Of a DNA stretch of 64,000 bases, positions 17,353 through 60,142 are shown one piece after another. The DNA comes from Escherichia phage p000y, in the sequence record MK047718.1, one strand, 5' to 3'. Below the pieces are notes generated by a model. That model was given only the letters and a program-made list of their open reading frames with translations. It did no database searches and was not told the DNA's origin. The position numbers and the translations under genes are program-made. The number at the start of each line of letters is the position of its first letter. The first letter of the stretch is position 1.

Positions 17353-17425
17353 TGGGAATTAGCCAAGTTGGTAAGGCACTGGATTTTGATTCCAGGATGC
17401 AAAGGTTCGAGTCCTTTATTCCCAG
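17353..17425 (+). tRNA. tRNA-Gln (anticodon UUG)
   Basis: Manual cloverleaf: acceptor TGGGAAT/ATTCCCA, anticodon loop TTTTGAT, T-arm AAAGG-TTCGAGT-CCTTT. Confidence 0.8.
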
Positions 17426-17426
17426 C

Positions 17427-17513
17427 GCGAGAATGGCCAAATTGGTAAAGGCACAGCACTTAAAATGCTGCGGAATGATTTCCTTGTGGGTTCGAGTCCC
17501 ACTTCTCGCACCA
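17427..17513 (+). tRNA. tRNA-Leu (anticodon UAA), long variable arm, CCA encoded
   Basis: Acceptor GCGAGAA/TTCTCGC, anticodon loop CTTAAAA, T-loop TTCGAGT. Confidence 0.8.
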
Positions 17514-17518
17514 AATTT

Positions 17519-17592
<74 letters not shown>

Positions 17593-17602
17593 ATTTAATT
17601 TA

Positions 17603-17676
17603 CTCCGTGTAGCTCAGTTTGGTAGAGCGCCTGATTTGGGATCAGGAGGTCCAAGGTTCAAATCCTTGTATGGAGA
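17603..17676 (+). tRNA. tRNA-Pro (anticodon UGG)
   Basis: Acceptor CTCCGTG/TATGGAG with G-U pairs, anticodon loop TTTGGGA, T-loop TTCAAAT. Confidence 0.75.
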
Positions 17677-17678
17677 CT

Positions 17679-17768
17679 GGAGGCGTGGCAGAGTGGTTTA
17701 ATGCACCGGTCTTGAAAACCGGCAGTCGCTCCGGCGACTCATAGGTTCAAATCCTATCGCCTCCGCCA
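17679..17768 (+). tRNA. tRNA-Ser (anticodon UGA), long variable arm, CCA encoded
   Basis: Acceptor GGAGGCG/CGCCTCC, anticodon loop CTTGAAA, T-loop TTCAAAT. Confidence 0.8.
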
Positions 17769-17773
17769 ATTTT

Positions 17774-17849
17774 GCTGATTTAGCTCAGTAGGTAGAGCAA
17801 CTCACTTGTAATGAGAAGGTCGGCGGTTCGATTCCGTCAATCAGCACCA
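17774..17849 (+). tRNA. tRNA-Thr (anticodon UGU), CCA encoded
   Basis: Acceptor GCTGATT/AATCAGC, anticodon loop CTTGTAA, T-loop TTCGATT. Confidence 0.8.
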
Positions 17850-17850
17850 A

Positions 17851-17925
17851 GGCCCTGTAGCTGGAAGGTTCAAGCAAGCGACTCATAATCGCCAGATGGT
17901 GGTTCAATTCCACCCAGGGCCACCA
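17851..17925 (+). tRNA. tRNA with anticodon CAU (Ile lysidine-type as in T4, or Met), CCA encoded
   Basis: Acceptor GGCCCTG/CAGGGCC, anticodon loop CTCATAA, T-loop TTCAATT. Confidence 0.7.
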
Positions 17926-17937
17926 AATTATGAATTA

Positions 17938-18024
17938 GGGGAGTTATCCCGTAGAGGTAGCGGTGTGGACTGTAAATCCATTGTCATTGCGACTCGGGTG
18001 GTTCGACTCCATCACTCCCAACCA
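17938..18024 (+). tRNA. tRNA-Tyr (anticodon GUA), long variable arm, CCA encoded
   Basis: Anticodon stem GTGGA/TCCAT with loop CTGTAAA, T-loop TTCGACT; acceptor has G-A at pair 1-72, so ends are approximate. Confidence 0.65.
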
Positions 18025-18028
18025 ATTT

Positions 18029-18103
18029 GGATGTGTAGCTCAATGGCAGAGCGATCGCCTGTTAAGCGATTGGTTATAGGTTCGAATCCTATCACGTCCG
18101 CCA
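18029..18103 (+). tRNA. tRNA-Asn (anticodon GUU), CCA encoded
   Basis: Acceptor GGATGTG/CACGTCC, anticodon stem ATCGC/GCGAT with loop CTGTTAA, T-loop TTCGAAT. Confidence 0.75.
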
Positions 18104-18107
18104 AATA

Positions 18108-18184
<77 letters not shown>

Positions 18185-24955: not shown

Positions 24956-25261
24956 ATGAAATTAGGCGAAACCAACCGAATTGGTCTTTTAACAATATTT
25001 GCATCACCTTTTTACGCAGCTCTTTCTGTTGCAGTATTACAAAAGGCTTACGATATGGATGGTGTTCCTGGTTTTGTATTCTTATCGCCGTTTTTGCTAT
25101 TCGTTGGAGCATTGTTATTATATGCCACGACTAGTTTCGACCATAATGTCTGGGTTAATTATAAATGTAAATTGTCTGAAGAAGAACATGCAGAAGCTCG
25201 TAAAAAAGCTATTGAATCTACCAATCTAGAAAATTTCATTAAAGAATGTCGAGGAAAATAA
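24956..25261 (+). CDS. membrane protein with C-terminal FIKECR motif
   Basis: 101 aa, two hydrophobic helices, GAGGAG SD. Confidence 0.65.
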   Translation: MKLGETNRIGLLTIFASPFYAALSVAVLQKAYDMDGVPGFVFLSPFLLFVGALLLYATTSFDHNVWVNYKCKLSEEEHAEARKKAIESTNLENFIKECRGK

Positions 25262-25262
25262 T

Positions 25263-25949
25263 ATGAATAGTTCTAAAACTTTTAATAGTCAAGCTCGTGC
25301 AGTTGGTAGTTTTGCACATAACGTACAAAATGACCGAATCAAAAATGAACCAATGTTCTTTAATTGTGATTTGGGTTTTGCTTGGGATAATGGTGGCTCA
25401 ATCACTCGTAGCTTTATTGCCAATCTCCCAATTGATTGGACTAATCAACATGTTGTATTTGATTCTCGGGTTCATATGCTGATGCCTGGTTGGTATCCTG
25501 CTATTCCTGGATACCACCATGACGATGTTCCTCGCCCTGATATTCCAGTTGGTCAACACTTTATTACTGCAGGACAACCTGACTATGACAACCCTCGTTA
25601 CCATTCTGAACATATTCTTGGTCTTGTTAACGCTGACGTGTGTCCTACTCATTTTGCAACAGGAACTGCAGAGTTCAGTCAGATTCCTGATGGCGAACTT
25701 ATCTATCGCCAGTGGCACAAAGAAGTCCTCGAAAAAATTGAAAAAGGTGAACTAGAGAAATGGGAAGCTCCAGATCGTACTCTTCTTCAGTTTGATTGGC
25801 AAACATGGCACACTGGTTCTCGTGCAATTAGTAATGGATGGCGTTGGTTCGGACGTGTATCTCGTAATACAGACCGAGTTAAAAAGATTACCAATGAAAT
25901 TCGTGTCAATGCTCAAGTTTATCTGGAATTCCCTATGGAAGGCTGGTAA
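25263..25949 (+). CDS. hypothetical protein
   Basis: 228-aa ORF. Confidence 0.65.
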   Translation: MNSSKTFNSQARAVGSFAHNVQNDRIKNEPMFFNCDLGFAWDNGGSITRSFIANLPIDWTNQHVVFDSRVHMLMPGWYPAIPGYHHDDVPRPDIPVGQHFITAGQPDYDNPRYHSEHILGLVNADVCPTHFATGTAEFSQIPDGELIYRQWHKEVLEKIEKGELEKWEAPDRTLLQFDWQTWHTGSRAISNGWRWFGRVSRNTDRVKKITNEIRVNAQVYLEFPMEGW

Positions 25950-26440
25950 TGATTAACAAAACATATTGGTCTAATATAGACGATGGCAATGAAGGTATTT
26001 CATACTATTCAGTAGATTGGACAGGATGTCCATCCTACTTAGTGAAACATATTTGCCAAGAATTTAAAATCGACCAGCCAGCAGGTATTATCGTGAACAG
26101 ATACATTAATGGATATCAACCTATCGATGAAGTAATACGAACAACTCAAGCTGAGCTTGAAAAGTTTTTCAATAAGTGCCAATGGATAACAGGATGGATT
26201 ATATTTGTACCGTCGGTATGGTTTTTTAGTACTAAGGTGAGTTCTTTCGGTTTTGTTGATATTATTGCTATCTTATTAGCATCTACTATCGTAAGTATTA
26301 TTGGTGGTATTATTGGTGGAGGTACTGTAGGCATCATTATTAATCTTGTTAAAAGTAGTTTACAGGAACGTAAAGACAAGATAAAGGCCAAGAATAATGA
26401 AGTTGAACGTTTTATTACCGAATGCAGGAATTTGAGATGA
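25949..26440 (+). CDS. membrane protein with C-terminal FITECR motif
   Basis: 163 aa, hydrophobic core with G-rich helix. Confidence 0.65.
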   Translation: MINKTYWSNIDDGNEGISYYSVDWTGCPSYLVKHICQEFKIDQPAGIIVNRYINGYQPIDEVIRTTQAELEKFFNKCQWITGWIIFVPSVWFFSTKVSSFGFVDIIAILLASTIVSIIGGIIGGGTVGIIINLVKSSLQERKDKIKAKNNEVERFITECRNLR

Positions 26441-26673
26441 GTATAGCAATTTACATTAAATCAGAATCATGTGATAGTTATCTGTACACATACGATAAAG
26501 ATGTGTCAGAAGAAAAAATCAAAGACGACCTTAATATGGACCTTGATATGTTCTGTCCTATTGCAGATTACAAACTTGCGGTCTCTAATAGTGAAAGTCC
26601 ATCTAAAGAAACGCGCATTGAAGAATTTATGTCCGAATTAATGGCCAAATCATGGGACCGAGATGATGAGTAA
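26437..26673 (+). CDS. hypothetical protein
   Basis: ATGA start/stop overlap with upstream gene (track ORF 26422). Confidence 0.55.
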   Translation: MSIAIYIKSESCDSYLYTYDKDVSEEKIKDDLNMDLDMFCPIADYKLAVSNSESPSKETRIEEFMSELMAKSWDRDDE

Positions 26674-27121
26674 GAAAAATAAAGTGAAAGAACTATCAGC
26701 CGGTATTATTTTCCTTACCGAAGATAAAGAATTATTCATGGGGCGTGTAACTGGTTCTCGTCCTAAAGGTGCATTAGCTCATCGGTGGGATATTCCTAAA
26801 GGACGTGTCGAGCCCGGTGAATCTCCTATTGAAGCCGCTATTCGCGAATGCGAAGAAGAAACTGGGTTTACACAATATGACCCTGCCTTCCTGAAAGACC
26901 TAGGTGAACATAATTACTCAGACAATAAGAATATTCATCTGTTCCTATATACCATCCCTGTAGAGCACGAGCAATTCAGAAACAGTGTTTGTAATTCATA
27001 TCATACATTCCCAGACGGACGACAGATTCCTGAATTTGATGCATTCGCTTTAATTAAACCTTCTCAATGGGAATATGTAATGGGCAAATCATTATATAAG
27101 GTGCTCACTACCCTCCTATAA
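26663..27121 (+). CDS. nudE: Nudix hydrolase NudE (e.1)
   Basis: 152 aa; Nudix box GRVEPGESPIEAAIRECEEETGF; position upstream of e as in T4. Confidence 0.85.
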   Translation: MMSKKNKVKELSAGIIFLTEDKELFMGRVTGSRPKGALAHRWDIPKGRVEPGESPIEAAIRECEEETGFTQYDPAFLKDLGEHNYSDNKNIHLFLYTIPVEHEQFRNSVCNSYHTFPDGRQIPEFDAFALIKPSQWEYVMGKSLYKVLTTLL

Positions 27122-27129
27122 GTAATAAA

Positions 27130-27153
27130 TACCTCCTATAAACGTGGGAGGTA
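27130..27153 (+). promoter_or_regulatory. hairpin sequestering the lysozyme SD, with late-promoter-like TATAAA in the loop
   Basis: Inverted repeat TACCTCC/GGAGGTA; 3' arm contains the e Shine-Dalgarno; same architecture as described for T4 e. Confidence 0.5.
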
Positions 27154-27155
27154 TT

Positions 27156-27644
27156 ATGAATATATTTGAAATGCTTCGTAATGACGAAGGTCTTAGACTG
27201 ACTTTATACAAAGACACCGAAGGCTTTTGGACGATTGGCATAGGCCATTTAGTAACAAAGAACCCGTCTTTAGCCGTAGCTAAAGCTGAACTTGACAGAA
27301 TGATCGGTCGTAAATGCAACGGTACAATTACCCTTGATGAGGCTGAAAAGCTATTTAATGAAGACGTTGATAAAGCCGTTCGCGGAATCTTGGGTAATGC
27401 TAAACTTAAACCGGTGTATGATTCTTTAGATGCGGTTCGTCGATGTGCATTGGTCAATATGGTCTTCCAAATGGGTGTAGCAGGCGTCGCCGGTTTTACT
27501 AATTCTCTTCGTATGCTTCAACAGAAACGTTGGGACGAAGCGGCAGTAAATCTAGCCCAATCTAAATGGTATCGTCAGACACCTAATCGCGCGAAACGCG
27601 TAATCTCAACATTTAAAACAGGAACTTGGAAAGCGTATATATGA
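27156..27644 (+). CDS. e: endolysin (T4-type lysozyme)
   Basis: [32 protein letters not shown]... near-identical to T4 lysozyme by recall; ATG 27156 inside track ORF 27144. Confidence 0.95.
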
Positions 27645-27922
27645 AAACATATAGTGAATTTTTATCAGAATCTATTCTTAACGAAGCTACCGACACATTT
27701 GCAACTAAGCTAGGTGCAGCTTTGGTTGAAGCTGAAAGTCTATTAGCACGTATTTCTGAACTTGCTAGTAAGATAGATACTCGCAAATTTGAACGTACCA
27801 GCGATATCGCTAAGCTTGAAGCCTTGTTGCGTATGTGCGATAAACCAGAAGAAATCGCTAAGAACGGCTCGCTGATGAAACAACGTCTTGAAAAATATAT
27901 TTCAGGCGCTTCAGAAAAATAG
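27641..27922 (+). CDS. internal-protein-like protein with capsid-targeting sequence
   Basis: [11 protein letters not shown]-terminus; ATGA overlap with e stop. Confidence 0.65.
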
Positions 27923-27924
27923 TG

Positions 27925-27953
27925 TTTACTTCCTCCAAGGATTTTGATACTAT
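27925..27953 (+). promoter_or_regulatory. early promoter (TTTACT, 17 nt, TACTAT) upstream of denV
   Basis: Read from sequence. Confidence 0.55.
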
Positions 27954-27980
27954 ACATTCATCAACTACTTGGAGGAAATT

Positions 27981-28394
27981 ATGACTCGTATCAATTTAAC
28001 ACTTGTTTCTGAACTGTCCGACCAACATCTTATGGCTGAGTATCGTGAATTACCACGCGTATTTGGTGCAGTCCGTAAACATGTTCAAAACGGTAAACGT
28101 GTAAAGGATTTTAAAATCTCTCCAACATTTATCTTAGGCACAGGTCACGTAACATTCTTTTACGACAAACTCGAATTTTTACGTTTACGTCAAATCGAGC
28201 TAATCGCTGAATGCTTGAAACGTGGTTTCAAAATCAAGGACACGACTGTCCAGGATATTTCCGACATTCCTGTAGAATTTCGTAATAATTACGTCCCGTC
28301 CGAAGCGTCCATTGCGATAAGTCAAGCACGCTTAGATGAAAAAATTGCTCAACGGCCGTCTTGGTACAAATACTATGGTAAATCAATTTACTAA
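27981..28394 (+). CDS. denV: endonuclease V (pyrimidine dimer DNA glycosylase)
   Basis: [12 protein letters not shown]...[16 protein letters not shown] near-identical to T4 DenV by recall; 137 aa. Confidence 0.93.
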
Positions 28395-28401
28395 GGAAAA
28401 A

Positions 28402-28662
28402 ATGAAAATGTATCAAGAATTTATCATTGAAGCAGATGCCAAAGACCCCAAATTTAAAGTTAAAGCTTTCATTGGTGATGCGGAAGACTTTGGCTCATTA
28501 AAACGTAATGGGTATTCTTTCTTAGGTGGCGATGGTAAAGAAATCAACACCTATGCAAAACGTAGTGAAATTGCTTATGTTGTAGTAAGTCCTAAAGTAG
28601 ATGTTGACGATATTGGATACGATTTTAACAACTTCGGAATTATTTCTGGCGGTAAAGCTTAA
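28402..28662 (+). CDS. internal-protein-like protein with capsid-targeting sequence
   Basis: MKMYQEFIIE N-terminus. Confidence 0.6.
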   Translation: MKMYQEFIIEADAKDPKFKVKAFIGDAEDFGSLKRNGYSFLGGDGKEINTYAKRSEIAYVVVSPKVDVDDIGYDFNNFGIISGGKA

Positions 28663-28666
28663 ATTG

Positions 28667-28695
28667 TTTACGCTTAAGTATTAATATGGTATAAT
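28667..28695 (+). promoter_or_regulatory. early promoter (TTTACG, 17 nt, TATAAT)
   Basis: Read from sequence. Confidence 0.55.
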
Positions 28696-28726
28696 TACTC
28701 TATCAAAACAAACAAGGAAACAAAAA

Positions 28727-29041
28727 ATGAAAACGTATAAAGAATTTATTGCAGAATCCGCCAACCAACGCGTTGAAGGTGGTTATATTTGGATTGAACA
28801 AGTTGAGCCACCGAGCCGCACTTCTACAGGTAAATGGAAAATTACTGTTGACGGTCCTGGTGGTAAACGTAGGACTCTTAAAGAAATTAATGGGTACTAT
28901 GAAGAAGCTCTTTCGGATGCAGGAACTTACATGATGCAAATCATGATTAAAAACCCTGAAAACCGTTTTGCAGCTAAAGTCTTCCGTCGTATTGGTAATA
29001 AACTTTATGATGCATACTCTAAAAACTTCCCTAAAGAATAA
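28727..29041 (+). CDS. internal-protein-like protein with capsid-targeting sequence
   Basis: MKTYKEFIAE N-terminus. Confidence 0.65.
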   Translation: MKTYKEFIAESANQRVEGGYIWIEQVEPPSRTSTGKWKITVDGPGGKRRTLKEINGYYEEALSDAGTYMMQIMIKNPENRFAAKVFRRIGNKLYDAYSKNFPKE

Positions 29042-29066
29042 CATAAATTAAAACAATAGGAACAAA

Positions 29067-29396
29067 ATGAAAACATATCAGGAGTTTATCACTGAAGTTA
29101 CATTATCTGCGGAACAGAAAGCTGCTATCGAAGAAGGTAAGAATCCCAAAGTAACATATAAAGTAAATAGTAAAGGCGTTTTTGATGGCTTGGTTCAAGA
29201 CCCTGAATTGAAAAAAGCTCTTTCTAAAACTAATGCGTACTTTGCTCCTAAATTTAACGCAGCCGGTGTACTTATTGGATTGGATGTATTCAACTCTAAA
29301 GGTGTTCTATCTAATGCCTTTGGTTATGCCGCTAACAAAATTACCAAAGCCGCATGGGAATCCAATACCAAACAAGCTCAAAAGCCTAGAGTATAA
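29067..29396 (+). CDS. internal-protein-like protein with capsid-targeting sequence
   Basis: MKTYQEFITE N-terminus. Confidence 0.65.
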   Translation: MKTYQEFITEVTLSAEQKAAIEEGKNPKVTYKVNSKGVFDGLVQDPELKKALSKTNAYFAPKFNAAGVLIGLDVFNSKGVLSNAFGYAANKITKAAWESNTKQAQKPRV

Positions 29397-29568
29397 TTCT
29401 TGCCTAATAAAGGGAAACGCAACCTCTCCTCATGAACGTCGAGTCCTCTGAGTGATGTACCTTTTCCAACCTGTAATAAGGTCGAGCGCAATGCGGTAAT
29501 GGGTTTACATAGCGAGTCGAAGGACCTAACATGTGCCACGGAATGGCCCAAACCTTAAGAGAAATAAT

Positions 29569-30108
29569 ATGAGAACATTTTTAACTGGACCTTATCTATC
29601 CCTGATGAATGCTTTTACACACCATTCTGATGCTAGAGTAGAAGAAATTTGTAAGAACGGTTATGTCCCACCATTTGAAGACGTACTCAAGCAGTACTGT
29701 ACACTTCGTTTAGACGGCGGCCGACAATCAGGTAAATCAATTGCTGTGACTAACTTTGCTGCTAATTGGCTGTATGATGGCGGAACAGTTATTGTTCTTT
29801 CTAATACTTCAGCTTATGCTAAAATTTCTGCTGGCAACATTGAAAAAGAATTTTCTCGTTATTCTAGCGACGATATTCGATTCCGTTTATTTACTGATTC
29901 TGTTCGTAGTTTTATTGGCAATGAAGGTTCTAAATTCCGTGGATTAACGCTTTCTCGTATTCTGTATATAATTGACGAGCCTATTAAAGCTCCTGATATG
30001 GATAAGATTTACAATGTACATATTAAAACAGTCCAACACTGTTGCAAAAGCAAATATTGCATCGGCGGTAATGCTCGTCCTCAATTTTTTGTGATTGGAA
30101 TGCAATGA
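29569..30108 (+). CDS. P-loop NTPase-like hypothetical protein
   Basis: Walker A GGRQSGKS and Walker B-like LYIIDEP; ATG 29569 inside track ORF 29533. Confidence 0.6.
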   Translation: MRTFLTGPYLSLMNAFTHHSDARVEEICKNGYVPPFEDVLKQYCTLRLDGGRQSGKSIAVTNFAANWLYDGGTVIVLSNTSAYAKISAGNIEKEFSRYSSDDIRFRLFTDSVRSFIGNEGSKFRGLTLSRILYIIDEPIKAPDMDKIYNVHIKTVQHCCKSKYCIGGNARPQFFVIGMQ

Positions 30109-30413
30109 TGACCACCATTGAAGTTTTTGAATATTGTTATAACAGCCCAGTATGCAATAAAAGGGCCCTTGTAGAAAATTACGAGATTTACCATTTTAAA
30201 CCTAAACGATATCGTTTGACTAAAGGTCCGTTCGCAGGGCAGCAGGTTCTTTGTACTGCTCCTAATGCACGACTGATGACTAGTATTCCACATTTCAAAA
30301 TGGAATTTATTGACGGGCCATTTAAGGGATTAATCACTCAAAGTTTAATGGCGTTTAATTCCGACCCATTTTTGATTAAAGAAAAAATTTGGATAAATTT
30401 ATTTTCTAATTGA
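30105..30413 (+). CDS. hypothetical protein
   Basis: 102-aa ORF. Confidence 0.6.
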   Translation: MMTTIEVFEYCYNSPVCNKRALVENYEIYHFKPKRYRLTKGPFAGQQVLCTAPNARLMTSIPHFKMEFIDGPFKGLITQSLMAFNSDPFLIKEKIWINLFSN

Positions 30414-30419
30414 GGTTAT

Positions 30420-30782
30420 ATGAAAGCATATCAAATTCTTGAAGGCACACACAAAGGCACTATTTATTTTGAAGACGGTACTCAAGCCCGGATTATTGTC
30501 TCTAAGACTTTTAAAGAAGACGCTATTGTAGACCCAGAAATTTTCTACGGTTTGAATGCCCGTGAAATTGAAATTGAACATCAACCTAAAGTTAAAATTG
30601 AAGGTGGTCAACACCTGAACGTTAATGTTCTGCGTCGTGAAACTCTGGAAGATGCAGTTAAGCATCCAGAAAAATATCCGCAGTTGACCATCCGTGTATC
30701 CGGTTATGCAGTTCGCTTTAACTCTCTGACTCCGGAACAGCAGCGTGACGTTATCGCTCGTACCTTTACTGAGAGTCTATAA
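30420..30782 (+). CDS. autonomous glycyl radical cofactor (GrcA/YfiD-like)
   Basis: 120 aa; C-terminal glycyl-radical motif RVSGYAV; C-terminal ~60 aa match my recollection of E. coli GrcA. Confidence 0.8.
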
Positions 30783-31006
30783 TGGCTAAATTGATTATAG
30801 AAGGGTCTGAAGATGTTTTAAAATGTTTTGCCGCCTGGTTTAGTTGCTCAGGCGAGCAATCATTCATTGAAGCATTTAGAATGGGTGATATTATTGGAAA
30901 CTATCCGGCAACTGATATCACTGTACGTGGATATGGTATTAATGAGCCTATCCAATTGGTCGAATATGACCTTGCCACCGATGAGGAAATTCCTTATGTC
31001 GATTGA
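30782..31006 (+). CDS. hypothetical protein
   Basis: 74-aa ORF. Confidence 0.55.
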   Translation: MAKLIIEGSEDVLKCFAAWFSCSGEQSFIEAFRMGDIIGNYPATDITVRGYGINEPIQLVEYDLATDEEIPYVD

Positions 31007-31262
31007 AGATATTAAAGGCTACAAGCCACATACCGACGATAAAATCGGTAAAGTGAACGCTATTAAAGATGCAGAAGTCCGTCTTGGATTGTTGTTTGAT
31101 GCTCTGATTGAAGAAGCATATATCTTGAAAGAAAATGAAACAGAGCAACAAACCAAAGAAGATATGGATGCAGTACAGGCTCTTAAGTATGCTAAGCAAC
31201 ATCTAAAAGAAGCCAGCATGTGGGCCTGTCGTGCAGTATTTCGACCTGAGGAAAAATACTAA
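30996..31262 (+). CDS. hypothetical small helical protein
   Basis: ATG 30996 inside track ORF 30828; overlaps upstream stop. Confidence 0.5.
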
Positions 31263-31561
31263 TGGCTCAAATCCTATCAGGCTTTGGAACTCATTATGAA
31301 GCATCTAGACGCATAACTGAAAGCAATCCTTTTGGCCTTGTTCCGAAGCACAAGAAAATTCAAAGCCTTGATGACTTTGAGAACCGCCTATGGGCCCTCT
31401 TTAATGAGTACAAGGCGTATCTGAAAGAAGACGCTGACGATTGTCTTGAAGAAGATGAGATTGCGTATTACGAACAACGCCTTGAACAGCTCAAGAACTT
31501 CCATCAGGTTCGTGACGAAGTATCTAAAGCAGTTAAAAAGTTAATTCCTTTCAAAGAGTAG
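31262..31561 (+). CDS. hypothetical small helical protein
   Basis: 99-aa ORF. Confidence 0.6.
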
Positions 31562-31611
31562 TTTACTTCTCCTCTAGTTGTGTTACTATAGACTTGTCAA
31601 CTAGAGGAGAA
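31562..31611 (+). promoter_or_regulatory. early promoter (TTTACT, 16 nt, TACTAT) embedded in a perfect 14-bp inverted repeat that contains the regB Shine-Dalgarno
   Basis: Arms TTCTCCTCTAGTTG (31567-31580) and CAACTAGAGGAGAA (31598-31611) flank the -10. Confidence 0.6.
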
Positions 31612-31617
31612 ATCAAA

Positions 31618-32076
31618 ATGACTATCAATTCGGAAGTTTTTATCCGCCGTAATAAACTCCGTCGAATCTTTGAAACGGAGTTCCGCAAAATAAATGCCAG
31701 TATAAAAGATGCTGCAAAGTCTCTTGGACTACCAGGCTTTCATATCAAGTATTCTCAACATCTCTTAGATCGTGCCATCCAGAGAGAAATAGATGAGAAT
31801 TACGTTTTTGAATTATTTCATAAAGTAAAAAATCACGTTAAAGAAGTTGCAGAATTTTTATCAATGCCGGCACGTCCAGATGTTGATGAAGATTTTGTCG
31901 AAGGTGTCGAGTATCGTCCAGGCCGTTTAGAAATAACTGACGGAAATCTTTGGTTAGGACTTACAGTTTGTCGCGAAAATCCGGCATTCAAAATGAAGAC
32001 TCTTCAATGTAGAATGGCTATTATTAACAGTAAACGACTACCAGGAAAAGCTTCTAAAGCAGTGATTAAAATCTAG
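31618..32076 (+). CDS. regB: endoribonuclease RegB
   Basis: MTINSEVFIRRNKLRR...KYSQHLLDRAIQREIDE closely matches T4 RegB by recall; 152 aa. Confidence 0.9.
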   Translation: MTINSEVFIRRNKLRRIFETEFRKINASIKDAAKSLGLPGFHIKYSQHLLDRAIQREIDENYVFELFHKVKNHVKEVAEFLSMPARPDVDEDFVEGVEYRPGRLEITDGNLWLGLTVCRENPAFKMKTLQCRMAIINSKRLPGKASKAVIKI

Positions 32077-32084
32077 AGGTAAAC

Positions 32085-32627
32085 ATGAGAAAAGCACTAC
32101 TCGCTGGTCTATTTGCTCTTTCGTTATCAGCACATAGCTCCGAGCATACTTTTAGTAATGTCCAACTCGATAACTTGAATTATGCTTATCAGTTTGGGGA
32201 ACAGTTTTCTAAGGATGGAAAATTTAAAACGCATGAAAATATGCATAAGAAAGGACTTGGATACATAATGGCCGCAATACTATGGCAGGAATCATCTGCC
32301 GGTATTAATCTTAAAGATAAGAAAGGTCACCATGCGTATGGAATGTTCCAAAATTATCTACCAACAATGAGGGCAAGAATTAACCAACTTGGTTATAATA
32401 TGACTGATGCCCAAATTAAGAAAATGCTATCTAAGCGGTCTAATTCAGCCAGATGGGCTTATATCGAATTTTCTTATTGGTTAAATATACATAACGGGGA
32501 TATAAGAAAAGCTATATCCTCATATAATGCGGGATGGAAGACAAGTGCCGGAAGTAAATATGCTTCTGAAGTCCTAGAAAAGGCTAATTACCTTAAATCA
32601 AATAAACTACTGGAAATAAAAGAATGA
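32085..32627 (+). CDS. secreted lytic transglycosylase-like protein (SLT motifs)
   Basis: Signal peptide MRKALLAGLFALSLSA; SLT motifs WQESS, YGMFQ, SYNAG. Confidence 0.65.
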   Translation: MRKALLAGLFALSLSAHSSEHTFSNVQLDNLNYAYQFGEQFSKDGKFKTHENMHKKGLGYIMAAILWQESSAGINLKDKKGHHAYGMFQNYLPTMRARINQLGYNMTDAQIKKMLSKRSNSARWAYIEFSYWLNIHNGDIRKAISSYNAGWKTSAGSKYASEVLEKANYLKSNKLLEIKE

Positions 32628-32971
32628 CCAAAATGTTGGCTTTAATAGTTAGCTTGGTTTCATTTAACGCTCTTGCTAATACTACATATACTGATGTAAC
32701 GGAGTATACAAACAGAACGGCGTCTGATTATTGTGGTAAAAGTCAAGAGTGTAAAGTAGATTTTTCACAAAAATTGTTATATGCGTATAAAGACGGAGAA
32801 AAAGACGGGGCGTCTAGTAGGTTCAAGGCGTCTACCTTAATTAAAAGATACTATAAAAAATGGCAAATATTAGAATGCTCGGTGGCGGAACCTAAAGATA
32901 AGGCAGCATGCAATTCTATGGTGGACCGTCTAGTTGACTCTTATAATAGAGGACTTGCAGCAAGTGATTAA
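32624..32971 (+). CDS. secreted hypothetical protein
   Basis: Signal peptide MTKMLALIVSLVSFNALA. Confidence 0.6.
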   Translation: MTKMLALIVSLVSFNALANTTYTDVTEYTNRTASDYCGKSQECKVDFSQKLLYAYKDGEKDGASSRFKASTLIKRYYKKWQILECSVAEPKDKAACNSMVDRLVDSYNRGLAASD

Positions 32972-33431
32972 AAACTATATCAAGGGCGATATTGTCGCCC
33001 TGTTTTCTAAAGGTAATAATATTGCTCATGGGTGTAATTGTTTTCATACAATGGGCGCCGGTGTAGCAGGCCAATTAGCAAAGGCTTATCCAAAAATTTT
33101 AGAAGCCGATAAACTTCAAACCGAATTCGGAGACAAGTCTAAACTCGGGACTTATTCGGTTTATGAAAAATATTTTAAGACCCATAAAGCTTATTGCTTT
33201 AATCTTTATACACAGTTTGAGCCGGGACCTAATTTTGAGTACTCTGCTTTAATGAATTGTATAATAGAATTAAATGAATTCGGAAAGAATAAGATAATAA
33301 AGCCTGTAATTTATATGCCAAGAATTGGTGCAGGTATTGGTGGTGGAAACTGGGATGTCATCGAAGAGATTTTAGATACGTATTCTACTAAACTAGAAAT
33401 TGTGATTGTTGATTGGGAACCGTTATTATGA
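32934..33431 (+). CDS. macro-domain-like protein (possible ADP-ribose binding/hydrolase); start uncertain
   Basis: Motifs NNIAHGCNCFHTMGAGVAGQL and PRIGAGIGGGNW resemble macro-domain glycine-rich loops; only non-ATG starts available (TTG 32934, GTG 32964). Confidence 0.45.
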   Translation: MTLIIEDLQQVIKNYIKGDIVALFSKGNNIAHGCNCFHTMGAGVAGQLAKAYPKILEADKLQTEFGDKSKLGTYSVYEKYFKTHKAYCFNLYTQFEPGPNFEYSALMNCIIELNEFGKNKIIKPVIYMPRIGAGIGGGNWDVIEEILDTYSTKLEIVIVDWEPLL

Positions 33432-45766: not shown

Positions 45767-46240
45767 ATGTTATTATCAGGCGCAAAATATAAAGAAGAAA
45801 AACAAAAATTTTATGATGCACAGAACGGTAAGTGTCCTATTTGCCACCGTGAATTAGACCCTGATGTTCAAGGTAACCATCTTGACCATGACCACGAATT
45901 AAATGGGCCAAAAGCCGGTAGAGTTCGTGGATTACTCTGTAATCTGTGCAACGCAGCAGAAGGTCAAATGAAGCATAAGTTCAACCGTTCCGGTTTGAAA
46001 GGTCAAAACGTTGACTACTTAGAATGGCTTGAAGCTCTTCTTGCTTATTTGAAACAAGATTATTCTGATAATAATATCCATCCTAATTTTGTTCCAGACA
46101 AAACTAAAGAGTTCTCAAGACTAGGTAAAGAGGAAATGATGGCCGAGATGCTTCAAAGAGGATTTGAATATAATGAATCTGATACTAAAACACAATTAAT
46201 AGCTTCATTCAAAAAGCAACTTAGAAAGAGTTTAAAATGA
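45767..46240 (+). CDS. 49: endonuclease VII (Holliday junction resolvase) gp49
   Basis: 157 aa; near-identical to T4 EndoVII by recall (CPICHRELDP...HLDHDHELNGPKAG). Confidence 0.93.
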   Translation: MLLSGAKYKEEKQKFYDAQNGKCPICHRELDPDVQGNHLDHDHELNGPKAGRVRGLLCNLCNAAEGQMKHKFNRSGLKGQNVDYLEWLEALLAYLKQDYSDNNIHPNFVPDKTKEFSRLGKEEMMAEMLQRGFEYNESDTKTQLIASFKKQLRKSLK

Positions 46241-48054
46241 AAATTGAAAAAGAAATTGAAGGATTAATTCGTAAAACTAATAAAGATCTTTTGAACGAGA
46301 ATGCTAATAAAGATTCTCGTGTTTTTCCAACTCAACGGGACCTTATGGCTGGTATTGTGTCTAAGCACATTGCCAAAAATATGGTCCCGTCTTTTATTAT
46401 GAAAGCGCATGAAAGTGGAATTATCCATTTTCATGATATTGATTATTCCCCTGCTCTTCCATTTACTAATTGCTGTTTAGTAGATTTAAAAGGAATGCTT
46501 GAGAACGGGTTTAAGCTTGGTAATGCGCAGATTGAAACACCTAAATCAATCGGTGTTGCTACTGCAATTATGGCACAAATTACTGCGCAAGTTGCTTCTC
46601 ATCAATATGGCGGAACGACTTTTGCGAATGTAGATAAAGTACTTTCTCCTTATGTTAAACGCACCTATGCAAAACATATCGAGGACGCGGAAAAATGGCA
46701 AATCGCTGATGCACTGAATTATGCTCAATCTAAAACAGAAAAAGATGTATATGATGCATTCCAAGCTTATGAATATGAAGTAAATACTCTCTTTAGTTCA
46801 AACGGGCAAACGCCTTTTGTAACGATTACATTTGGTACAGGAACTGACTGGGCTGAGCGAATGATTCAGAAGGCAATTCTTAAAAACCGCATTAAAGGTC
46901 TCGGCCGTGATGGAATAACTCCTATTTTCCCTAAGCTTGTTATGTTCGTTGAAGAAGGCGTTAATCTTTACAAAGACGATCCGAACTATGATATTAAACA
47001 GCTTGCTCTAGAGTGCGCAAGCAAAAGGATGTATCCTGATATTATTTCAGCTAAGAATAATAAAGCTATCACCGGTTCATCTATTCCTGTTTCTCCGATG
47101 GGTTGCCGTAGTTTCTTGAGCGTATGGAAAGATTCGACTGGTAATGAAATTCTTGATGGACGTAATAATCTTGGTGTTGTAACGCTGAATCTTCCTCGCA
47201 TTGCGTTAGATTCTTATATTGGAACACAATTTAACGAACAGAAATTTGTTGAATTATTCAATGAACGAATGGATTTGTGTTTTGAAGCTTTGATGTGTAG
47301 AATTAGTTCTTTAAAAGGAGTTAAAGCAACTGTTGCTCCTATTCTTTACCAAGAAGGTGCATTCGGGGTTCGTCTTAAACCGGATGATGATATAATTGAG
47401 TTATTTAAAAACGGTAGAAGTTCAGTGTCCCTAGGATACATTGGTATTCACGAATTGAATATTCTTGTTGGTCGTGATATTGGACAAGAAATTTTATCTA
47501 AAATGAATGCTCGTCTTAAGCAGTGGACTGAAAGAACCGGATTTGCTTTTAGCTTGTATTCTACTCCTGCTGAAAACTTGTGTTATCGCTTCTGTAAACT
47601 TGATACCGAAAAATATGGAAGTGTAAAGGATGTTACTGATAAAGGCTGGTACACTAACAGTTTCCATGTTTCAGTAGAAGAAAATATTACTCCGTTTGAA
47701 AAGATTTCCCGCGAAGCCCCATATCATTTCATTGCGACAGGTGGTCACATTTCTTATGTTGAACTTCCTGATATGAAAAATAACCTAAAAGGTCTTGAGG
47801 CTGTATGGGATTATGCTGCACAACATTTAGATTATTTTGGTGTTAATATGCCAGTAGATAAATGTTTTACATGTGGAAGTACCCATGAAATGACTCCGAC
47901 TGAAAACGGATTTGTTTGTTCAGTTTGTGGAGAAACTGATCCTAAAAAGATGAACACAATAAGAAGAACATGCGGCTACCTGGGAAATCCGAACGAACGC
48001 GGATTTAATCTCGGTAAAAATAAAGAAATAATGCATAGGGTTAAACACCAATGA
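46237..48054 (+). CDS. nrdD: anaerobic ribonucleoside-triphosphate reductase NrdD
   Basis: 605 aa as T4 NrdD; C-terminal glycyl-radical and Cys-cluster region; uninterrupted. Confidence 0.93.
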   Translation: MKIEKEIEGLIRKTNKDLLNENANKDSRVFPTQRDLMAGIVSKHIAKNMVPSFIMKAHESGIIHFHDIDYSPALPFTNCCLVDLKGMLENGFKLGNAQIETPKSIGVATAIMAQITAQVASHQYGGTTFANVDKVLSPYVKRTYAKHIEDAEKWQIADALNYAQSKTEKDVYDAFQAYEYEVNTLFSSNGQTPFVTITFGTGTDWAERMIQKAILKNRIKGLGRDGITPIFPKLVMFVEEGVNLYKDDPNYDIKQLALECASKRMYPDIISAKNNKAITGSSIPVSPMGCRSFLSVWKDSTGNEILDGRNNLGVVTLNLPRIALDSYIGTQFNEQKFVELFNERMDLCFEALMCRISSLKGVKATVAPILYQEGAFGVRLKPDDDIIELFKNGRSSVSLGYIGIHELNILVGRDIGQEILSKMNARLKQWTERTGFAFSLYSTPAENLCYRFCKLDTEKYGSVKDVTDKGWYTNSFHVSVEENITPFEKISREAPYHFIATGGHISYVELPDMKNNLKGLEAVWDYAAQHLDYFGVNMPVDKCFTCGSTHEMTPTENGFVCSVCGETDPKKMNTIRRTCGYLGNPNERGFNLGKNKEIMHRVKHQ

Positions 48055-48521
48055 ATTATGATAGATTTTATCCTTGCGATTTTGTGAATGGCCCTGGTTG
48101 CAGGGTCGTTCTTTTCGTTACAGGTTGTTTGCATAAATGCGAAGGGTGTTATAATAAATCAACATGGAATGCTAGAAATGGTATTCAATTCACTGGTGAA
48201 ACACTAGAACAATTAATTGAATGTTTGAATAATGATTATATAGAAGGATTAACTATAACTGGAGGTGACCCTCTTTATCCTGATAACAGAGACGTGATTC
48301 ACTCTGTGGTACAAACTATTAAAAATCTTTATCCCAATAAAAGCATTTGGTTGTGGACAGGATATAAGTTTGAAGATATTAAACAACTAGAAATGCTTAA
48401 ATATGTTGATGTTATTATTGATGGTAAGTATGAGAAAAATCTTCCGACCAAAAAGTTGTGGCGAGGATCAGATAATCAGCGACTTTGGTCAAATACCAAC
48501 GGGGTGTGGAAACATGATTAA
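48051..48521 (+). CDS. nrdG: anaerobic RNR activating enzyme NrdG (radical SAM)
   Basis: 156 aa; Cys cluster GCLHKCEGC. Confidence 0.9.
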   Translation: MNYDRFYPCDFVNGPGCRVVLFVTGCLHKCEGCYNKSTWNARNGIQFTGETLEQLIECLNNDYIEGLTITGGDPLYPDNRDVIHSVVQTIKNLYPNKSIWLWTGYKFEDIKQLEMLKYVDVIIDGKYEKNLPTKKLWRGSDNQRLWSNTNGVWKHD

Positions 48522-54775: not shown

Positions 54776-55001
54776 CTATGAAATCCATCGTCACGAATTT
54801 AGTATTGGCGACGGTTATATTGGTATCGTTGAATGGACTGAGAATTACGAGGAATCAACTCCTCGTTTCTTTGGAACAATGTATGTTACCTGTGAGTACG
54901 CACCAGGTGTTGTTATGTATGCAGAACTAGATGAATATTTTGCTGATAGAGATGACATGTTAAAATATGTAGAGGACTTCATTCGAAGAGAATACATATG
55001 A
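54762..55001 (+). CDS. hypothetical protein
   Basis: ATG 54762 inside track ORF 54747. Confidence 0.5.
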   Translation: MTKTDYEIHRHEFSIGDGYIGIVEWTENYEESTPRFFGTMYVTCEYAPGVVMYAELDEYFADRDDMLKYVEDFIRREYI

Positions 55002-56686
55002 AATCATTTAAATTAAATCGTGTTCGTTATCAAAACATCATGTCGGTAGGTGGGAATCCTATTGATATCCAATTAGATAAAGTCCAAAAGACATTAATCA
55101 CTGGTAAAAATGGCGGTGGTAAATCTACGATGTTAGAAGCCATTACTTTCGGACTTTTCGGTAAACCATTTCGTGATGTTAAGAAAGGACAAATCATTAA
55201 TAGCACGAACAAGAAAGAGCTCTTAGTTGAGCTTTGGATGGAATTCGATGATAAAAAATACTTCATTAAACGTGGCCAAAAGCCCAATATTTTCGAAATC
55301 TCCGTTGACGGTGTTCGTCTTGATGAATCTGCCAGCAGTCGCGACTTCCAAGAAGAATTTGAACGTAGCATCGGAATGTCATACGCGTCTTTTAAACAGA
55401 TCGTTGTGCTTGGGACGGCAGGGTATACCCCTTTCATGGCTCTTAGCACCCCTGCTCGCAGAAAGCTTGTTGAAGACTTATTAGAAGTTGGAACACTCGC
55501 TGAAATGGATAAAATCAATAAGTCTCAAGTTCGAGAACTTAATTCCCAGGGGCAAGTTCTCGATGCCAAGAAAGATGGTATTATCCAACAAATTAAGATT
55601 TATAACGAGAATATCGAACGTCAAAAGAAATTATCTGGCGATAATGTAGCGCGTCTACAGAATATGTATGACGACCTAGCCAAAGAAGCTCGTTCATTAA
55701 AAGCAGAAATCGAAGAAGCTAATGAGCGACTACTTAATATCGTTCTTGATGAAGACCCTACTGAGGCATTCAATAAGATAGGACAAGAAGCATTCTTGAT
55801 TAAATCTAAAATTGACTCATATAACAAAGTTATTAAGATGTATCATGATGGCGGTACATGTCCTACTTGCGCATCACAGTTGCACCAGGGTGATCCTATT
55901 GTCTCTAAGATTACCGATAAGCTTCATGAATGTAATCACTCATTCGAGCAACTTACCTGCCACAGAGATAATCTGAGTGTCCTAGTGGACGAATATAGAG
56001 CTAATGTTAAGACTAAGCAGGACCTTGCATCTGATATTCGTACCAAGAAACAAGCAATGATTGCCACTATTGATAAAGCTAAGAAAGTTAAAGCTGCAAT
56101 AGAGCAAGCCTCGGCAGAATTTATCGACCATGCCGATGAGATAGCTTTGCTTCAAAAAGAACTTGATAAAATCATTAAAACAAAATCAGATATCGTTCTT
56201 GAAAAATACCATCGTGGTATTATCACAGATATGTTAAAAGATTCTGGTATTAAAGGTGCTATCATTAAAAAATATGTGCCTCTGTTCAACAAGCAGATTA
56301 ACCATTACCTTAAAATCATGGAAGCTGATTACGTGTTTTCTATTGATGAAGAATTCAATGAATCTATAAAATCACGTGGCCGTGAAGAGTTCAGTTATGC
56401 TTCATTTAGTCAAGGTGAAAAGGCACGTATCGATATCGCATTGTTGTTTACATGGCGAGATATTGCTGAAAAAGTTTCCGGTGTTAAAATCAACACGTTG
56501 ATTCTTGATGAGGTTTTTGATGGGGCAGTTGATTCTGAAGCTGTTAAGGCTATAGATACCATTCTTGGAAGTTTACAAAATACTAACGTGTTCATTATCT
56601 CTCATCGAGACCATGACCCTCAACGTTATGGACAACATCTTCAGATGAGTAAAGTTGGACGATTTACTGTGATGACTGTTTCATAA
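54998..56686 (+). CDS. 46: recombination endonuclease subunit gp46 (Rad50-like ATPase)
   Basis: 562 aa; Walker A GKNGGGKST, central coiled coil with CPTC hook, C-terminal signature/Walker B. Confidence 0.93.
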   Translation: MKSFKLNRVRYQNIMSVGGNPIDIQLDKVQKTLITGKNGGGKSTMLEAITFGLFGKPFRDVKKGQIINSTNKKELLVELWMEFDDKKYFIKRGQKPNIFEISVDGVRLDESASSRDFQEEFERSIGMSYASFKQIVVLGTAGYTPFMALSTPARRKLVEDLLEVGTLAEMDKINKSQVRELNSQGQVLDAKKDGIIQQIKIYNENIERQKKLSGDNVARLQNMYDDLAKEARSLKAEIEEANERLLNIVLDEDPTEAFNKIGQEAFLIKSKIDSYNKVIKMYHDGGTCPTCASQLHQGDPIVSKITDKLHECNHSFEQLTCHRDNLSVLVDEYRANVKTKQDLASDIRTKKQAMIATIDKAKKVKAAIEQASAEFIDHADEIALLQKELDKIIKTKSDIVLEKYHRGIITDMLKDSGIKGAIIKKYVPLFNKQINHYLKIMEADYVFSIDEEFNESIKSRGREEFSYASFSQGEKARIDIALLFTWRDIAEKVSGVKINTLILDEVFDGAVDSEAVKAIDTILGSLQNTNVFIISHRDHDPQRYGQHLQMSKVGRFTVMTVS

Positions 56687-56740
56687 ACGCTTTAACACGA
56701 TGTGGTTATAATGACCACATCAAATTAAATGGAGAACAAC

Positions 56741-56929
56741 ATGGAGTATTCAACCGGACAACATCTTCTTGTTGTCCCTGAAATTAAAAAATATGTTTTG
56801 ACCAATACGTTTTCAGGTGAAGAACATATTGTTACTGAACAAATGCTCAAATCTGCTTTTAAAGATGAGTATAATAAAATAATGTCTAATCGCAATTCCG
56901 CATGGACAGTTACTGACTTCTACGAATAA
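56741..56929 (+). CDS. hypothetical protein
   Basis: ATG 56741 after GGAG SD inside track ORF 56729. Confidence 0.55.
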   Translation: MEYSTGQHLLVVPEIKKYVLTNTFSGEEHIVTEQMLKSAFKDEYNKIMSNRNSAWTVTDFYE

Positions 56930-56941
56930 GAGAGAAATAAT

Positions 56942-57358
56942 ATGTTTACTACTGCTAAAGGTTTCACTGCTGCTGATCTGAAAGTTACTTCTATCCGTAC
57001 TGACGCTAACCCGCATAACCATAATCGTGTTCGTAAAGCATGGGTCCTGCATTGTGATGACGCAAGTGCTAAAAAGCTTCAATCTTTGCCACAAGAAACT
57101 CGTTTTATGATTTATGGTTTTATTGATAACGATGTATCTGATATGTGGATTCATCTGATGCGTAAGCACTATAAAGATTCTATTGAAGCCGGTGGAAAAA
57201 TCGTTCTTGATAAAGATGGTTCTGAGCGTCTGGAAGATTTCTACTGTGTTGATGCCGACGAACAATTAATTGCAGCTGGCGAAATTGTTGCTTCTAAAAT
57301 TCCAGAATATATTGAATCACTGCCTGAAGCTATTAAAAAGCAGATGGTTGCTGCATAA
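56942..57358 (+). CDS. rpbA: RNA polymerase binding protein RpbA-like
   Basis: 138 aa immediately upstream of gene 45 as in T4; assigned by synteny and size. Confidence 0.65.
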   Translation: MFTTAKGFTAADLKVTSIRTDANPHNHNRVRKAWVLHCDDASAKKLQSLPQETRFMIYGFIDNDVSDMWIHLMRKHYKDSIEAGGKIVLDKDGSERLEDFYCVDADEQLIAAGEIVASKIPEYIESLPEAIKKQMVAA

Positions 57359-57400
57359 TAAATTTGTTATAAACTTTGAATTGTCTTGAAAGGAAATAAA

Positions 57401-58087
57401 ATGAAACTGTCTAAAGATACTATCGCTATTCTGAAAAACTTTGCCTCTATTAACTCCGGTATTCTGCTGAGTCAAGGTAAATTTATTATGACCCGTGCAG
57501 TTAATGGCACCACTTATGCGGAAGCAAATATCTCTGATGAAATTGATTTTGACGTAGCACTTTATGATTTGAATAGCTTCTTAAGCATTTTGAGTCTAGT
57601 GTCTGACGATGCTGAAATTTCAATGCACACTGATGGCAATATTAAAATTGCAGATACACGTTCCACAGTTTATTGGCCTGCTGCCGACAAGAGCACTATT
57701 GTTTTTCCTAATAAGCCAATTCAATTCCCGGTGGCTTCTGTGATTACTGAAATTAAAGCTGAAGACCTTCAACAATTGCTTCGAGTTTCACGTGGTCTCC
57801 AAATTGATACAATTGCTATTACAAATAAAGATGGTAAAATTGTTATCAATGGTTACAATAAAGTTGAAGATTCTGGCTTGACTCGTCCTAAGTATTCTTT
57901 GACTCTTACCGATTATGATGGTTCTAACAACTTTAACTTCGTAATCAATATGGCTAATATGAAAATCCAGCCAGGTAACTATAAAGTAATGCTGTGGGGA
58001 GCTGGTGATAAAGTTGCAGCCAAGTTTGAAAGCTCTCAAGTAAGTTATGTTATTGCAATGGAAGCCGATTCTACTCACGACTTCTAA
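57401..58087 (+). CDS. 45: sliding clamp gp45
   Basis: 228 aa; MKLSKDTIAILKNFASINSGI... near-identical to T4 gp45 by recall. Confidence 0.95.
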   Translation: MKLSKDTIAILKNFASINSGILLSQGKFIMTRAVNGTTYAEANISDEIDFDVALYDLNSFLSILSLVSDDAEISMHTDGNIKIADTRSTVYWPAADKSTIVFPNKPIQFPVASVITEIKAEDLQQLLRVSRGLQIDTIAITNKDGKIVINGYNKVEDSGLTRPKYSLTLTDYDGSNNFNFVINMANMKIQPGNYKVMLWGAGDKVAAKFESSQVSYVIAMEADSTHDF

Positions 58088-58162
58088 GTCAAAGCTTTAA
58101 GTTTATTGTGATACGATTACGGAGGAGAAATCCTCCAGTTTAATGATAATGAGGAAAATTAC

Positions 58163-59125: not shown

Positions 59126-59126
59126 T

Positions 59127-59690
59127 ATGAACTTATTCGATGATGACGTCCAGCTTAACGAGCACCAAATTGCATGGAAGTCTAATGACGCTGATGCGAT
59201 TCAAAAATGTGCTGATATGTTTAAAGAAAAACCTGAGAATGAATTCTTTAAAATCATTAATGCTATTAATGAAAAGAAATCTATGTCAATTGCTCAGGTC
59301 GACTACTCAAAATTTATGGTTGAGAACTCATTATCCCAGTTCCCGGAATGTATGCCAGCCGTTTACATGATGAACTTAGTCGGTTCTGAATTAAGCGATG
59401 AAGCGCACTTCAACTATATGATGGCGGCAATTCCACGTGGCCGACGATTCTCTAAATGGGCTAAACTAGTCGAAGACACTTCAGAGTTACTAGTTATCAA
59501 ACTGTTGATGAAACATTACACAATCAACATGAATGATGCTACCGAGTATAAGCGGCTCCTTGAAAAAAATAACAAGTTGCCAATAGTCCTTAAAGAACTG
59601 AAGGCCATGGTCACTGATGAGTTTCTCAAAGAAGTTACAAAAAATGTGAAAGAACAAAAACAATTTAAAAAATTAGCATTGGAATGGTAA
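59127..59690 (+). CDS. 62: clamp loader small subunit gp62
   Basis: 187 aa; synteny between 44 and regA. Confidence 0.9.
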
Positions 59691-59692
59691 AA

Positions 59693-60061: not shown

Positions 60062-60065
60062 AGCA

Positions 60066-60085
60066 ATGGGACTTCGGTCCCATTT
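60066..60085 (+). terminator. stable hairpin between regA and gene 43 (terminator or part of gene 43 translational operator)
   Basis: ATGGGAC-TTCG-GTCCCAT with UUCG tetraloop, followed by TT. Confidence 0.5.
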
Positions 60086-60142
60086 GGAGTATAATAAGTT
60101 CATCAACAAACAAAAGACAATAACTCGTCTAAAGGAAATTAA

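Follow-up and report, generated by a model that had tools for sequence, protein, structure and literature searches.

We are highly confident that the vs.6 gene of Escherichia phage p000y (sequence record MK047718.1) is a T-even phage gene for a GrcA/YfiD-type autonomous glycyl radical cofactor, a predicted spare part for pyruvate formate-lyase (PFL), and that its 3′ part has been patched with Escherichia grcA DNA. The gene itself is already known and annotated, its orthologue was characterised in 2001, and its right name is public. The host-DNA patch, which recurs with two host genera, is a modest addition to the knowledge of phage–host recombination. No earlier description of the DNA-level tract was found in the literature searched, although a prior mention is possible. 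The whole stretch of DNA that was analysed, 64,000 nucleotides in length, is referred to below as the window, and the coordinates of its features are collected in Table 1.

Table 1. Features of the vs.6 locus, of related genes in the window and of the sequences compared with them (window positions unless a contig is named)
Feature	Coordinates	Strand	Description and basis
vs.7 homologue	30105..30413	+	Upstream of vs.6; ORF, PHROG 2049, annotation of Shf125875 and T4
GAGG, Shine–Dalgarno-like (putative)	30412..30415	+	4 bases 5′ of the vs.6 ATG
vs.6 coding sequence	30420..30782	+	120 aa plus stop, ATG to TAA; ORF, Pfam, PHROG
Phage-native 5′ part of vs.6	30420..30596	+	N-terminal half; equivalent of the disordered E. 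coli GrcA residues 1–60
Host-derived Escherichia grcA tract	30597..30772	+	Gene positions 178–353; encodes the structured glycyl-radical domain
RVSGYAV glycyl-radical motif	30693..30713	+	Residues 92–98, from translation
Gly95 codon GGT	30702–30704	+	Equivalent of GrcA Gly102 and PFL Gly734; alignment
Phage-native 3′ tail of vs.6	30773..30782	+	Last three codons plus stop; 3/3 informative sites RB16-like
vs.5 homologue	30782..31006	+	Downstream of vs.6, start overlaps the vs.6 stop; ORF, PHROG 1986, annotation
RegB	31594–32076		Pfam 1.7e-69
nrdD, anaerobic ribonucleotide reductase	46237..48054	+	Pfam NRDD 6.3e-172, Gly_radical 1.5e-25
nrdG, radical-SAM activase of NrdD	48051..48521	+	Pfam Fer4_12 1.4e-48, Radical_SAM 9e-8
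Klebsiella-phage vs.6 loci compared	L184:11766–12128, L084:301–663, L178:123–485
Bacterial grcA, donor-type gene	L179:10255–10638	−	srmB-grcA-ung context

In the vs.6 protein, residues 59–101 are matched by the Pfam Gly_radical model (E=2e-18) and the full length (1–120) by PHROG 1209 (E=6e-63), while comparison with known structures retrieves E. coli GrcA (PDB 6OWR; E=2e-42) and residues 696–759 of PFL (PDB 1H16; E=3e-26), a resemblance that lies far above chance. The last 60 residues (EGGQHLNV...TFTESL) are identical, 60 of 60, to residues 68–127 of E. coli GrcA and include the RVSGYAV motif with its radical glycine, Gly95, as the earlier note had stated. The note had also described the N-terminal half as divergent, and this proved correct, since only 14 of 40 residues (35 %) are shared with E. 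coli GrcA; the BLASTP match (E=3e-6) shows that the two halves are nevertheless homologous. PHROG 1209 is still listed as of unknown function, even though the T4 protein was characterised in 2001.

The protein has the build of a small stand-alone cofactor of the ~14-kDa GrcA type (IPR011140), being 120 aa long and matched by glycyl radical enzyme models only over its last ~45–65 residues, without a barrel. On the NCBIfam GrcA equivalog model (TIGR04365), an operational criterion tuned to bacterial GrcA, it scores 159.1 bits, just below the cut-off of 170, because its N-terminal half is divergent; the match covers residues 18–120, and a Klebsiella GrcA reaches 228 bits. On the full-length PFL model (TIGR01255), it obtains 89.6 bits against a cut-off of 994, with only positions 679–744 of 744 matched. 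The identification of the vs.6 product as a pyruvate formate-lyase was rejected, as the ~750-aa ten-stranded barrel with its catalytic cysteines is absent, and the database label 'pyruvate formate-lyase' is thus a misnomer. Labels vary between records and also include 'putative acetyltransferase-related protein', '2-ketobutyrate formate-lyase' and 'hypothetical protein'.

Homologues of vs.6 occur in 1588 phage records, including those of T4-like, T5-like, Aeromonas and Vibrio phages, and the RefSeq name of both T4 vs.6 and Shf125875 gp115 is GrcA. The exact window protein is already public as the 'autonomous glycyl radical cofactor' of Mosigvirus phages, and the vs.6 stretch shares 99.2–99.7 % nucleotide identity with Mosigvirus (RB69-like) genomes in which GrcA is annotated; at this locus, the window phage, a T-even phage, is closest to Mosigvirus.

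The gene lies in a co-directional, tightly packed string with vs.7 and vs.5, in which the Shine–Dalgarno-like GAGG overlaps the TGA stop codon of vs.7 (30411–30413) and the vs.6 TAA overlaps the vs.5 ATG (TAATG). The order vs.8-vs.7-vs.6-vs.5-vs.4-vs.3-regB-vs.1 is conserved in the window, Shf125875 and T4, as judged by annotation, Pfam and PHROG. T4 vs.6 (Y06I, NP_049730; T4 coordinates 63557–63919), also named GrcA, is located between vs.7 and vs.5 as in the window and contains the same E. coli-like 3′ tract. Its product is identical to the window protein at 113 of 120 residues (94.2 %), without gaps. Six of the seven substitutions from window to T4 (T21I, A35S, I36F, N46H, H54P, K57T and R73H) fall in the N-terminal half, whereas at position 73 the window retains the E. 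coli state, Arg73, which is changed in the T4 reference. On sequence and gene order, the window gene is the orthologue of T4 vs.6/Y06I, a gene that is already known.

A scan for promoters and terminators around vs.6 returned 11 promoters against 10.9 expected in shuffled sequence, and therefore no transcription signals are claimed. Opposite vs.6, there is an antisense ORF of 88 codons (30399–30665, minus strand), which is probably a spurious by-product of the AT-rich coding strand. At the vs.8 position, the homologue in the Klebsiella phage contig L184 (10554–11120) shows a weak match to Pfam Terminase_6N (E=1e-5, just above the cut-off), and the window's own vs.8 homologue (29533–30108) has no Pfam match at E≤0.01. 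The product of nrdD is the other glycyl-radical protein of the window phage. T4 nrdD (sunY) carries a group I intron; the nrdD gene of the window is an uninterrupted ORF of 605 codons, and an Rfam search of the whole window detected no group I intron.

The earlier note had proposed a nucleotide-level comparison with E. coli grcA, and when this was run the identity was found to extend to the DNA, reaching 97.7 % over gene positions 178–353. Over the last 183 nt, the identity is 96.2 %, with seven differences, all of them synonymous, and the likeness, which covers 60 of 60 residues at the protein level, therefore goes well beyond the motif. Within the tract, the differences from E. coli are located at 30626, 30668, 30684 and 30746; all four are synonymous GC-to-AT changes, which fit host DNA drifting to phage composition, as expected. 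The 5′ part, in comparison, shows 43–57 % ungapped nucleotide identity to E. coli grcA. Its GC content is 35 % and its GC3 25 %; across the last 183 nt, the GC content goes up to 46 % and reaches 48 % at its peak, and GC3 is also higher in the tract.

The limits of the tract were located at informative sites, defined as positions at which E. coli grcA and vs.6 of phage RB16 differ. At gene positions 1–177, the window sides with RB16 at 47 such sites and with E. coli at 25, whereas at positions 178–353 it sides with E. coli at 27 and with RB16 at two (Fisher p=3.7e-8 versus upstream), and at positions 354–363 it sides with RB16 at three and with E. coli at none. The switches are thus placed at gene positions 178 and 354. 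The 3′ tail reads GAGAGTCTATAA, as in RB16, whereas E. coli has GAAAGCCTGTAA. The 5′ limit of the tract is also the start of the conserved domain, where position alone does not separate a crossover from the edge of the alignable region, and the argument is carried by the synonymous sites. By these sequence comparisons, the 3′ tract of vs.6 is Escherichia grcA DNA patched into an older phage gene.

The same region of T4 is 98.4 % identical to E. coli grcA, and the exact runs shared with E. coli extend over 170 nt in T2, 138 nt in T4 and 173 nt in phiE142. Among 81 bacterial grcA genes, E. coli provides the best match to the phage tract. Nowhere else in the 64-kb window is there a megablast match to E. 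coli chromosomes, since the searches with positions 1–25000, 25001–30590, 30800–55000 and 55001–64000 against E. coli genomes yielded no chromosomal match. Elsewhere in the window, a cluster of ten tRNA genes (Gln, Leu, Gly, Pro, Ser, Thr, Met, Tyr, Asn and Arg) occupies positions 17353–18184; the stretch 17935–18089, which contains tRNA-Tyr and the next tRNA, shows 83–90 % identity to plasmid-borne tRNA genes of E. coli (plasmids of ~93–111 kb, in 250 genomes) and has no chromosomal match in E. coli.

The identical C-terminus could in principle be the outcome of purifying selection for fit to the host PFL and PflA, with no movement of host DNA. Across Enterobacterales, the 60-residue domain hardly varies, its exact sequence being encoded by 13 of the 81 genes, and RB16 and similarly distant phages encode the domain without DNA-level identity. 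However, RB16 also serves as the control that separates the two processes: it has the same 60 residues, yet only 83 % DNA identity to E. coli grcA, and the match of the window is therefore not explained by protein constraint. The synonymous sites match as well, dS relative to E. coli being 0.17 in the window, 0.05 in T4 and ~2 in RB16, and 53 of 60 codons in the window are identical to those of E. coli compared with 31 of 60 in RB16 (p=1.9e-5). That codon bias combined with a fixed protein should by itself give ~96–99 % identity is contradicted by the 80–84 % seen for RB16, Slopekvirus and Salmonella. Moreover, none of the other bacterial genera comes as near to E. coli as the window tract does, Citrobacter grcA being 92.9 % and Salmonella grcA 84.2 % identical to the E. 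coli gene across the last 183 nt; in Klebsiella phages, the match is to Klebsiella DNA. An RNA-level cause of the nucleotide conservation was also considered and rejected, the folding z-score being −1.09 and the Rfam matches consisting of the ten tRNAs only, so that the tract shows neither an RNA-structure signal nor an Rfam match. Selection without transfer, already refuted by the synonymous-site contrast, is consequently very improbable. The alternatives offered by the earlier note, 'captured or strongly constrained', both hold: the constraint is seen in the residues that RB16 shares at 83 % DNA identity, and the capture in the T4-/RB69-type 3′ tract, 96.2 % identical to E. coli over 183 nt with seven synonymous differences.

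The extent of the capture has also been considered, since the whole gene might have been taken recently from E. coli, its N-terminal half then diverging rapidly. The homology of the N-terminal halves is still detectable (E=3e-6), which speaks for such a history. The switch is abrupt, however, with a 5′ half of ~43–57 % nucleotide identity adjoining a tract of 97–99 %, and the last 10 nt are of the phage type again. In addition, the N-terminal pattern MKAYQILEG...GTIY...VSKT is common to RB16, Slopekvirus and Karamvirus, which lack the tract, and comparison of the window with T4 indicates purifying selection on the 5′ half (dN/dS=0.047/0.349, ~0.13). A recent whole-gene origin is thus highly unlikely, and the capture is a patch within an older phage gene.

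With regard to direction, the 3′ and 5′ halves of E. coli grcA are 93 and 89 % identical to those of Citrobacter and 84 and 85 % identical to those of Salmonella, without discontinuity; because the E. coli gene diverges evenly from its relatives, the transfer ran from host to phage. The opposite direction, or an origin of the tract in assembly or laboratory artefact, has next to no probability, given this even divergence and the host-like GC3 of the tract. An artefact is further contradicted by the presence of the tract in 638 independently sequenced phage genomes, including Yersinia, Hafnia and Citrobacter isolates, and by its presence in isolate Klebsiella phages.

In Klebsiella phages of the Jiaodavirus type, the corresponding segment (positions 181–338) was compared with bacterial grcA, and the identity amounts to 158 of 158 nt (100 %) in L184, a 165-kb metagenomic phage contig, 98.1 % in pKp20 and 96.2 % in RCIP0102; isolate Klebsiella phages also carry the tract. 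The protein encoded by the bacterial grcA gene of the donor type (on L179) is identical to GRCA_KLEP7 of Klebsiella, whereas the Jiaodavirus-type tract shows only 87–89 % identity to E. coli grcA. GC3 in these phages is 0.63–0.67 in the tract versus 0.23–0.27 upstream. The Klebsiella-phage tract, on the evidence of these alignments, is an independent second host-to-phage replacement, and since it consists of Klebsiella grcA sequence at the same place, the replacement has happened at least twice. Each of the two replacements drew on the phage's own host genus. A further set of phage contigs from IMG/VR (L114–L119 and L125, ~32–154 kb) carries vs.6 with an 'NPDKYPQL' variant which, among the bacterial genes seen, occurs only in Haemophilus/Pasteurellaceae grcA, and L117 matches a Haemophilus grcA gene (L061) exactly over 56 nt; this is possibly a third host-specific tract.

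The earlier note had allowed for DNA-level identity as a sign of recent transfer, and this point calls for a qualification. Among 5426 complete E. coli genomes, no donor allele exceeded 96.2 % identity; it follows that all seven differences belong to the phage copy alone and that, measured against the diversity of E. coli, the transfer is not very recent. At ≥95 % identity, the tract is present in 638 phage records, and it starts at grcA position 199–200 in nearly all of the matches listed. Its 3′ end varies, being located at the stop codon in OES_C-2, at ~356 in T4, at ~350 in T2 and at ~344 in UFV-AREG1, and the states at gene positions 354 and 357 occur among the alleles in each of the four possible combinations. 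Compared with the T4 tract, that of the window contains four extra synonymous GC-to-AT changes and has another 3′ tail.

Between Mosigvirus-type and Tequatrovirus-type alleles, 13 of 180 positions upstream show fixed differences compared with none of 173 in the tract (p=2e-4), and when only synonymous fixed differences are counted the contrast is 8 of 38 versus 0 of 42 (p=0.002). The tract is thus younger than the split between the two allele classes, a contrast that fits independent host conversions and phage-to-phage spread alike. When vs.6 of the window is compared with that of T4, its 5′ half has a dS of 0.35 and its 3′ half one of 0.18, whereas in the neighbouring vs.7, vs.5, vs.3, regB and vs.1 dS ranges from 0.9 to saturation. 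In an alignment of the window with T4 (L095), vs.6 forms an island of low divergence within 29860–33400. It seems from these divergence values that the whole of vs.6, beyond the host tract, was exchanged between T-even genera after their split.

The function of the protein may be considered in the light of work on its T4 orthologue. According to PMC8683613, which cites Wagner et al. 2001 (BBRC 285:456), YfiD and T4 Y06I are the two validated spare parts for PFL and are activated by the PFL-activating enzyme (PFL-AE). Oxygen cleaves PFL at Gly734, which is the radical site, and the spare part binds to the cleaved enzyme, after which PFL-AE installs a glycyl radical and activity returns (PMC8683613). 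Residues 1–60 of YfiD are disordered and promote binding and activation, while residues 61–127 adopt the fold of PFL residues 693–759 (PMC8683613). The half of the window protein that diverges is the counterpart of the disordered half of YfiD, while the structured domain is matched by the half that is identical. By analogy with the T4 orthologue, from which it differs at seven residues, the identification of the window protein as a probable spare part for oxygen-damaged PFL is supported. The same role had been proposed in the earlier note, in agreement with what the literature reports for Y06I, which is 94.2 % identical and lies in the same gene order.

A different target has been considered, in which the vs.6 protein serves not PFL repair but as a spare part for the phage NrdD or as a decoy titrating the host PflA. 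The window does contain nrdD and nrdG, a role in nucleotide metabolism was proposed in an earlier comparative paper (PMC1524935) from a Pfam match alone, and the phage N-terminal half is unlike that of the host protein YfiD, in which this half governs binding and activation. On the other hand, the structured domain is identical to that of GrcA and also matches the PFL C-terminus (3e-26), PMC8683613 reports that PFL-AE activates the T4 orthologue and that cleaved PFL is rescued by it, and in Klebsiella phages the domain follows the grcA variant of the host. We regard this alternative as very unlikely and retain PFL repair as the preferred role.

Under PFL repair, the vs.6 protein would bind the host PFL that has been cleaved by oxygen at Gly734, its C-terminal domain would stand in for the lost C-terminus of the enzyme, and the host activase PflA would place a new radical on Gly95, rendering PFL active again. 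The phage may benefit in that the fermentative supply of acetyl-CoA and ATP would go on at low or fluctuating oxygen, presumably once host gene expression has been switched off by the phage. The earlier note had pointed to nrdD and nrdG, which are indeed present in the same genome (Table 1), and vs.6 together with these two genes may represent an adaptation to anaerobic gut hosts.

With respect to its history, vs.6 is an old gene of phages that is found in both the T4-like and the T5-like groups; in T4-/RB69-type phages, ~175 bp of its 3′ part was replaced by Escherichia grcA DNA. The replacement probably proceeded by homologous recombination with both end points within the ORF, and Klebsiella phages underwent the same replacement independently with Klebsiella grcA as the donor. 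It is conceivable, though we hold it rather doubtful, that vs.6 is a recurrent hot spot at which T-even phages overwrite the structured half with the grcA of their current host by gene conversion; if so, the domain would stay matched to the PFL/PflA system of the host. The variable 3′ ends, the four combinations at positions 354 and 357 and the lack of fixed differences in the tract would be in keeping with conversion that has recurred or is still going on, as opposed to two old events. Renewed conversion on each new host was also considered; the counter-evidence is that Tequatroviruses isolated on Yersinia, Hafnia or Citrobacter keep the E. coli tract, and conversion is thus not renewed with every change of host.

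T-even phages destroy host DNA, yet they do recombine occasionally with a homologous host gene, and a spare part that has to dock into a host enzyme is a place where host–phage recombination events survive. If conversion is ongoing and adaptive, recombination of the host chromosome into virulent phages that degrade host DNA should be measurable, and a recoded tract may potentially be used as a handle for determining host-to-phage conversion rates.

The closest known systems include E. coli GrcA (YfiD, 6OWR), a small stand-alone protein like that of the window with identical C-terminal 60 residues and radical glycine, although the N-terminal half of the window protein is seven residues shorter and ~35 % identical, and the phage gene is located in an early-gene string whereas E. 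coli grcA adjoins ung. The homologues of RB16/Pseudotevenvirus, Slopekvirus, Karamvirus, T5-like Demerecviridae, Aeromonas and Vibrio phages are likewise small proteins of this kind that end in a Gly_radical domain, but they lack the host-DNA tract; they show 70–85 % nucleotide identity to any bacterial grcA, and the exact runs that they share with bacterial grcA are ≤29 nt, the level seen between bacterial genera. A parallel to the tract is provided by cyanophage psbA, in which intragenic exchange between host and phage has given a virulent myovirus gene segments with host-like DNA and composition. The vs.6 gene differs from psbA in that it encodes a repair cofactor and belongs to enterobacterial T-even phages, and in that its tract is short (~160–185 bp) with a 5′ limit that falls on the border of the one segment over which the phage and host genes can be aligned.
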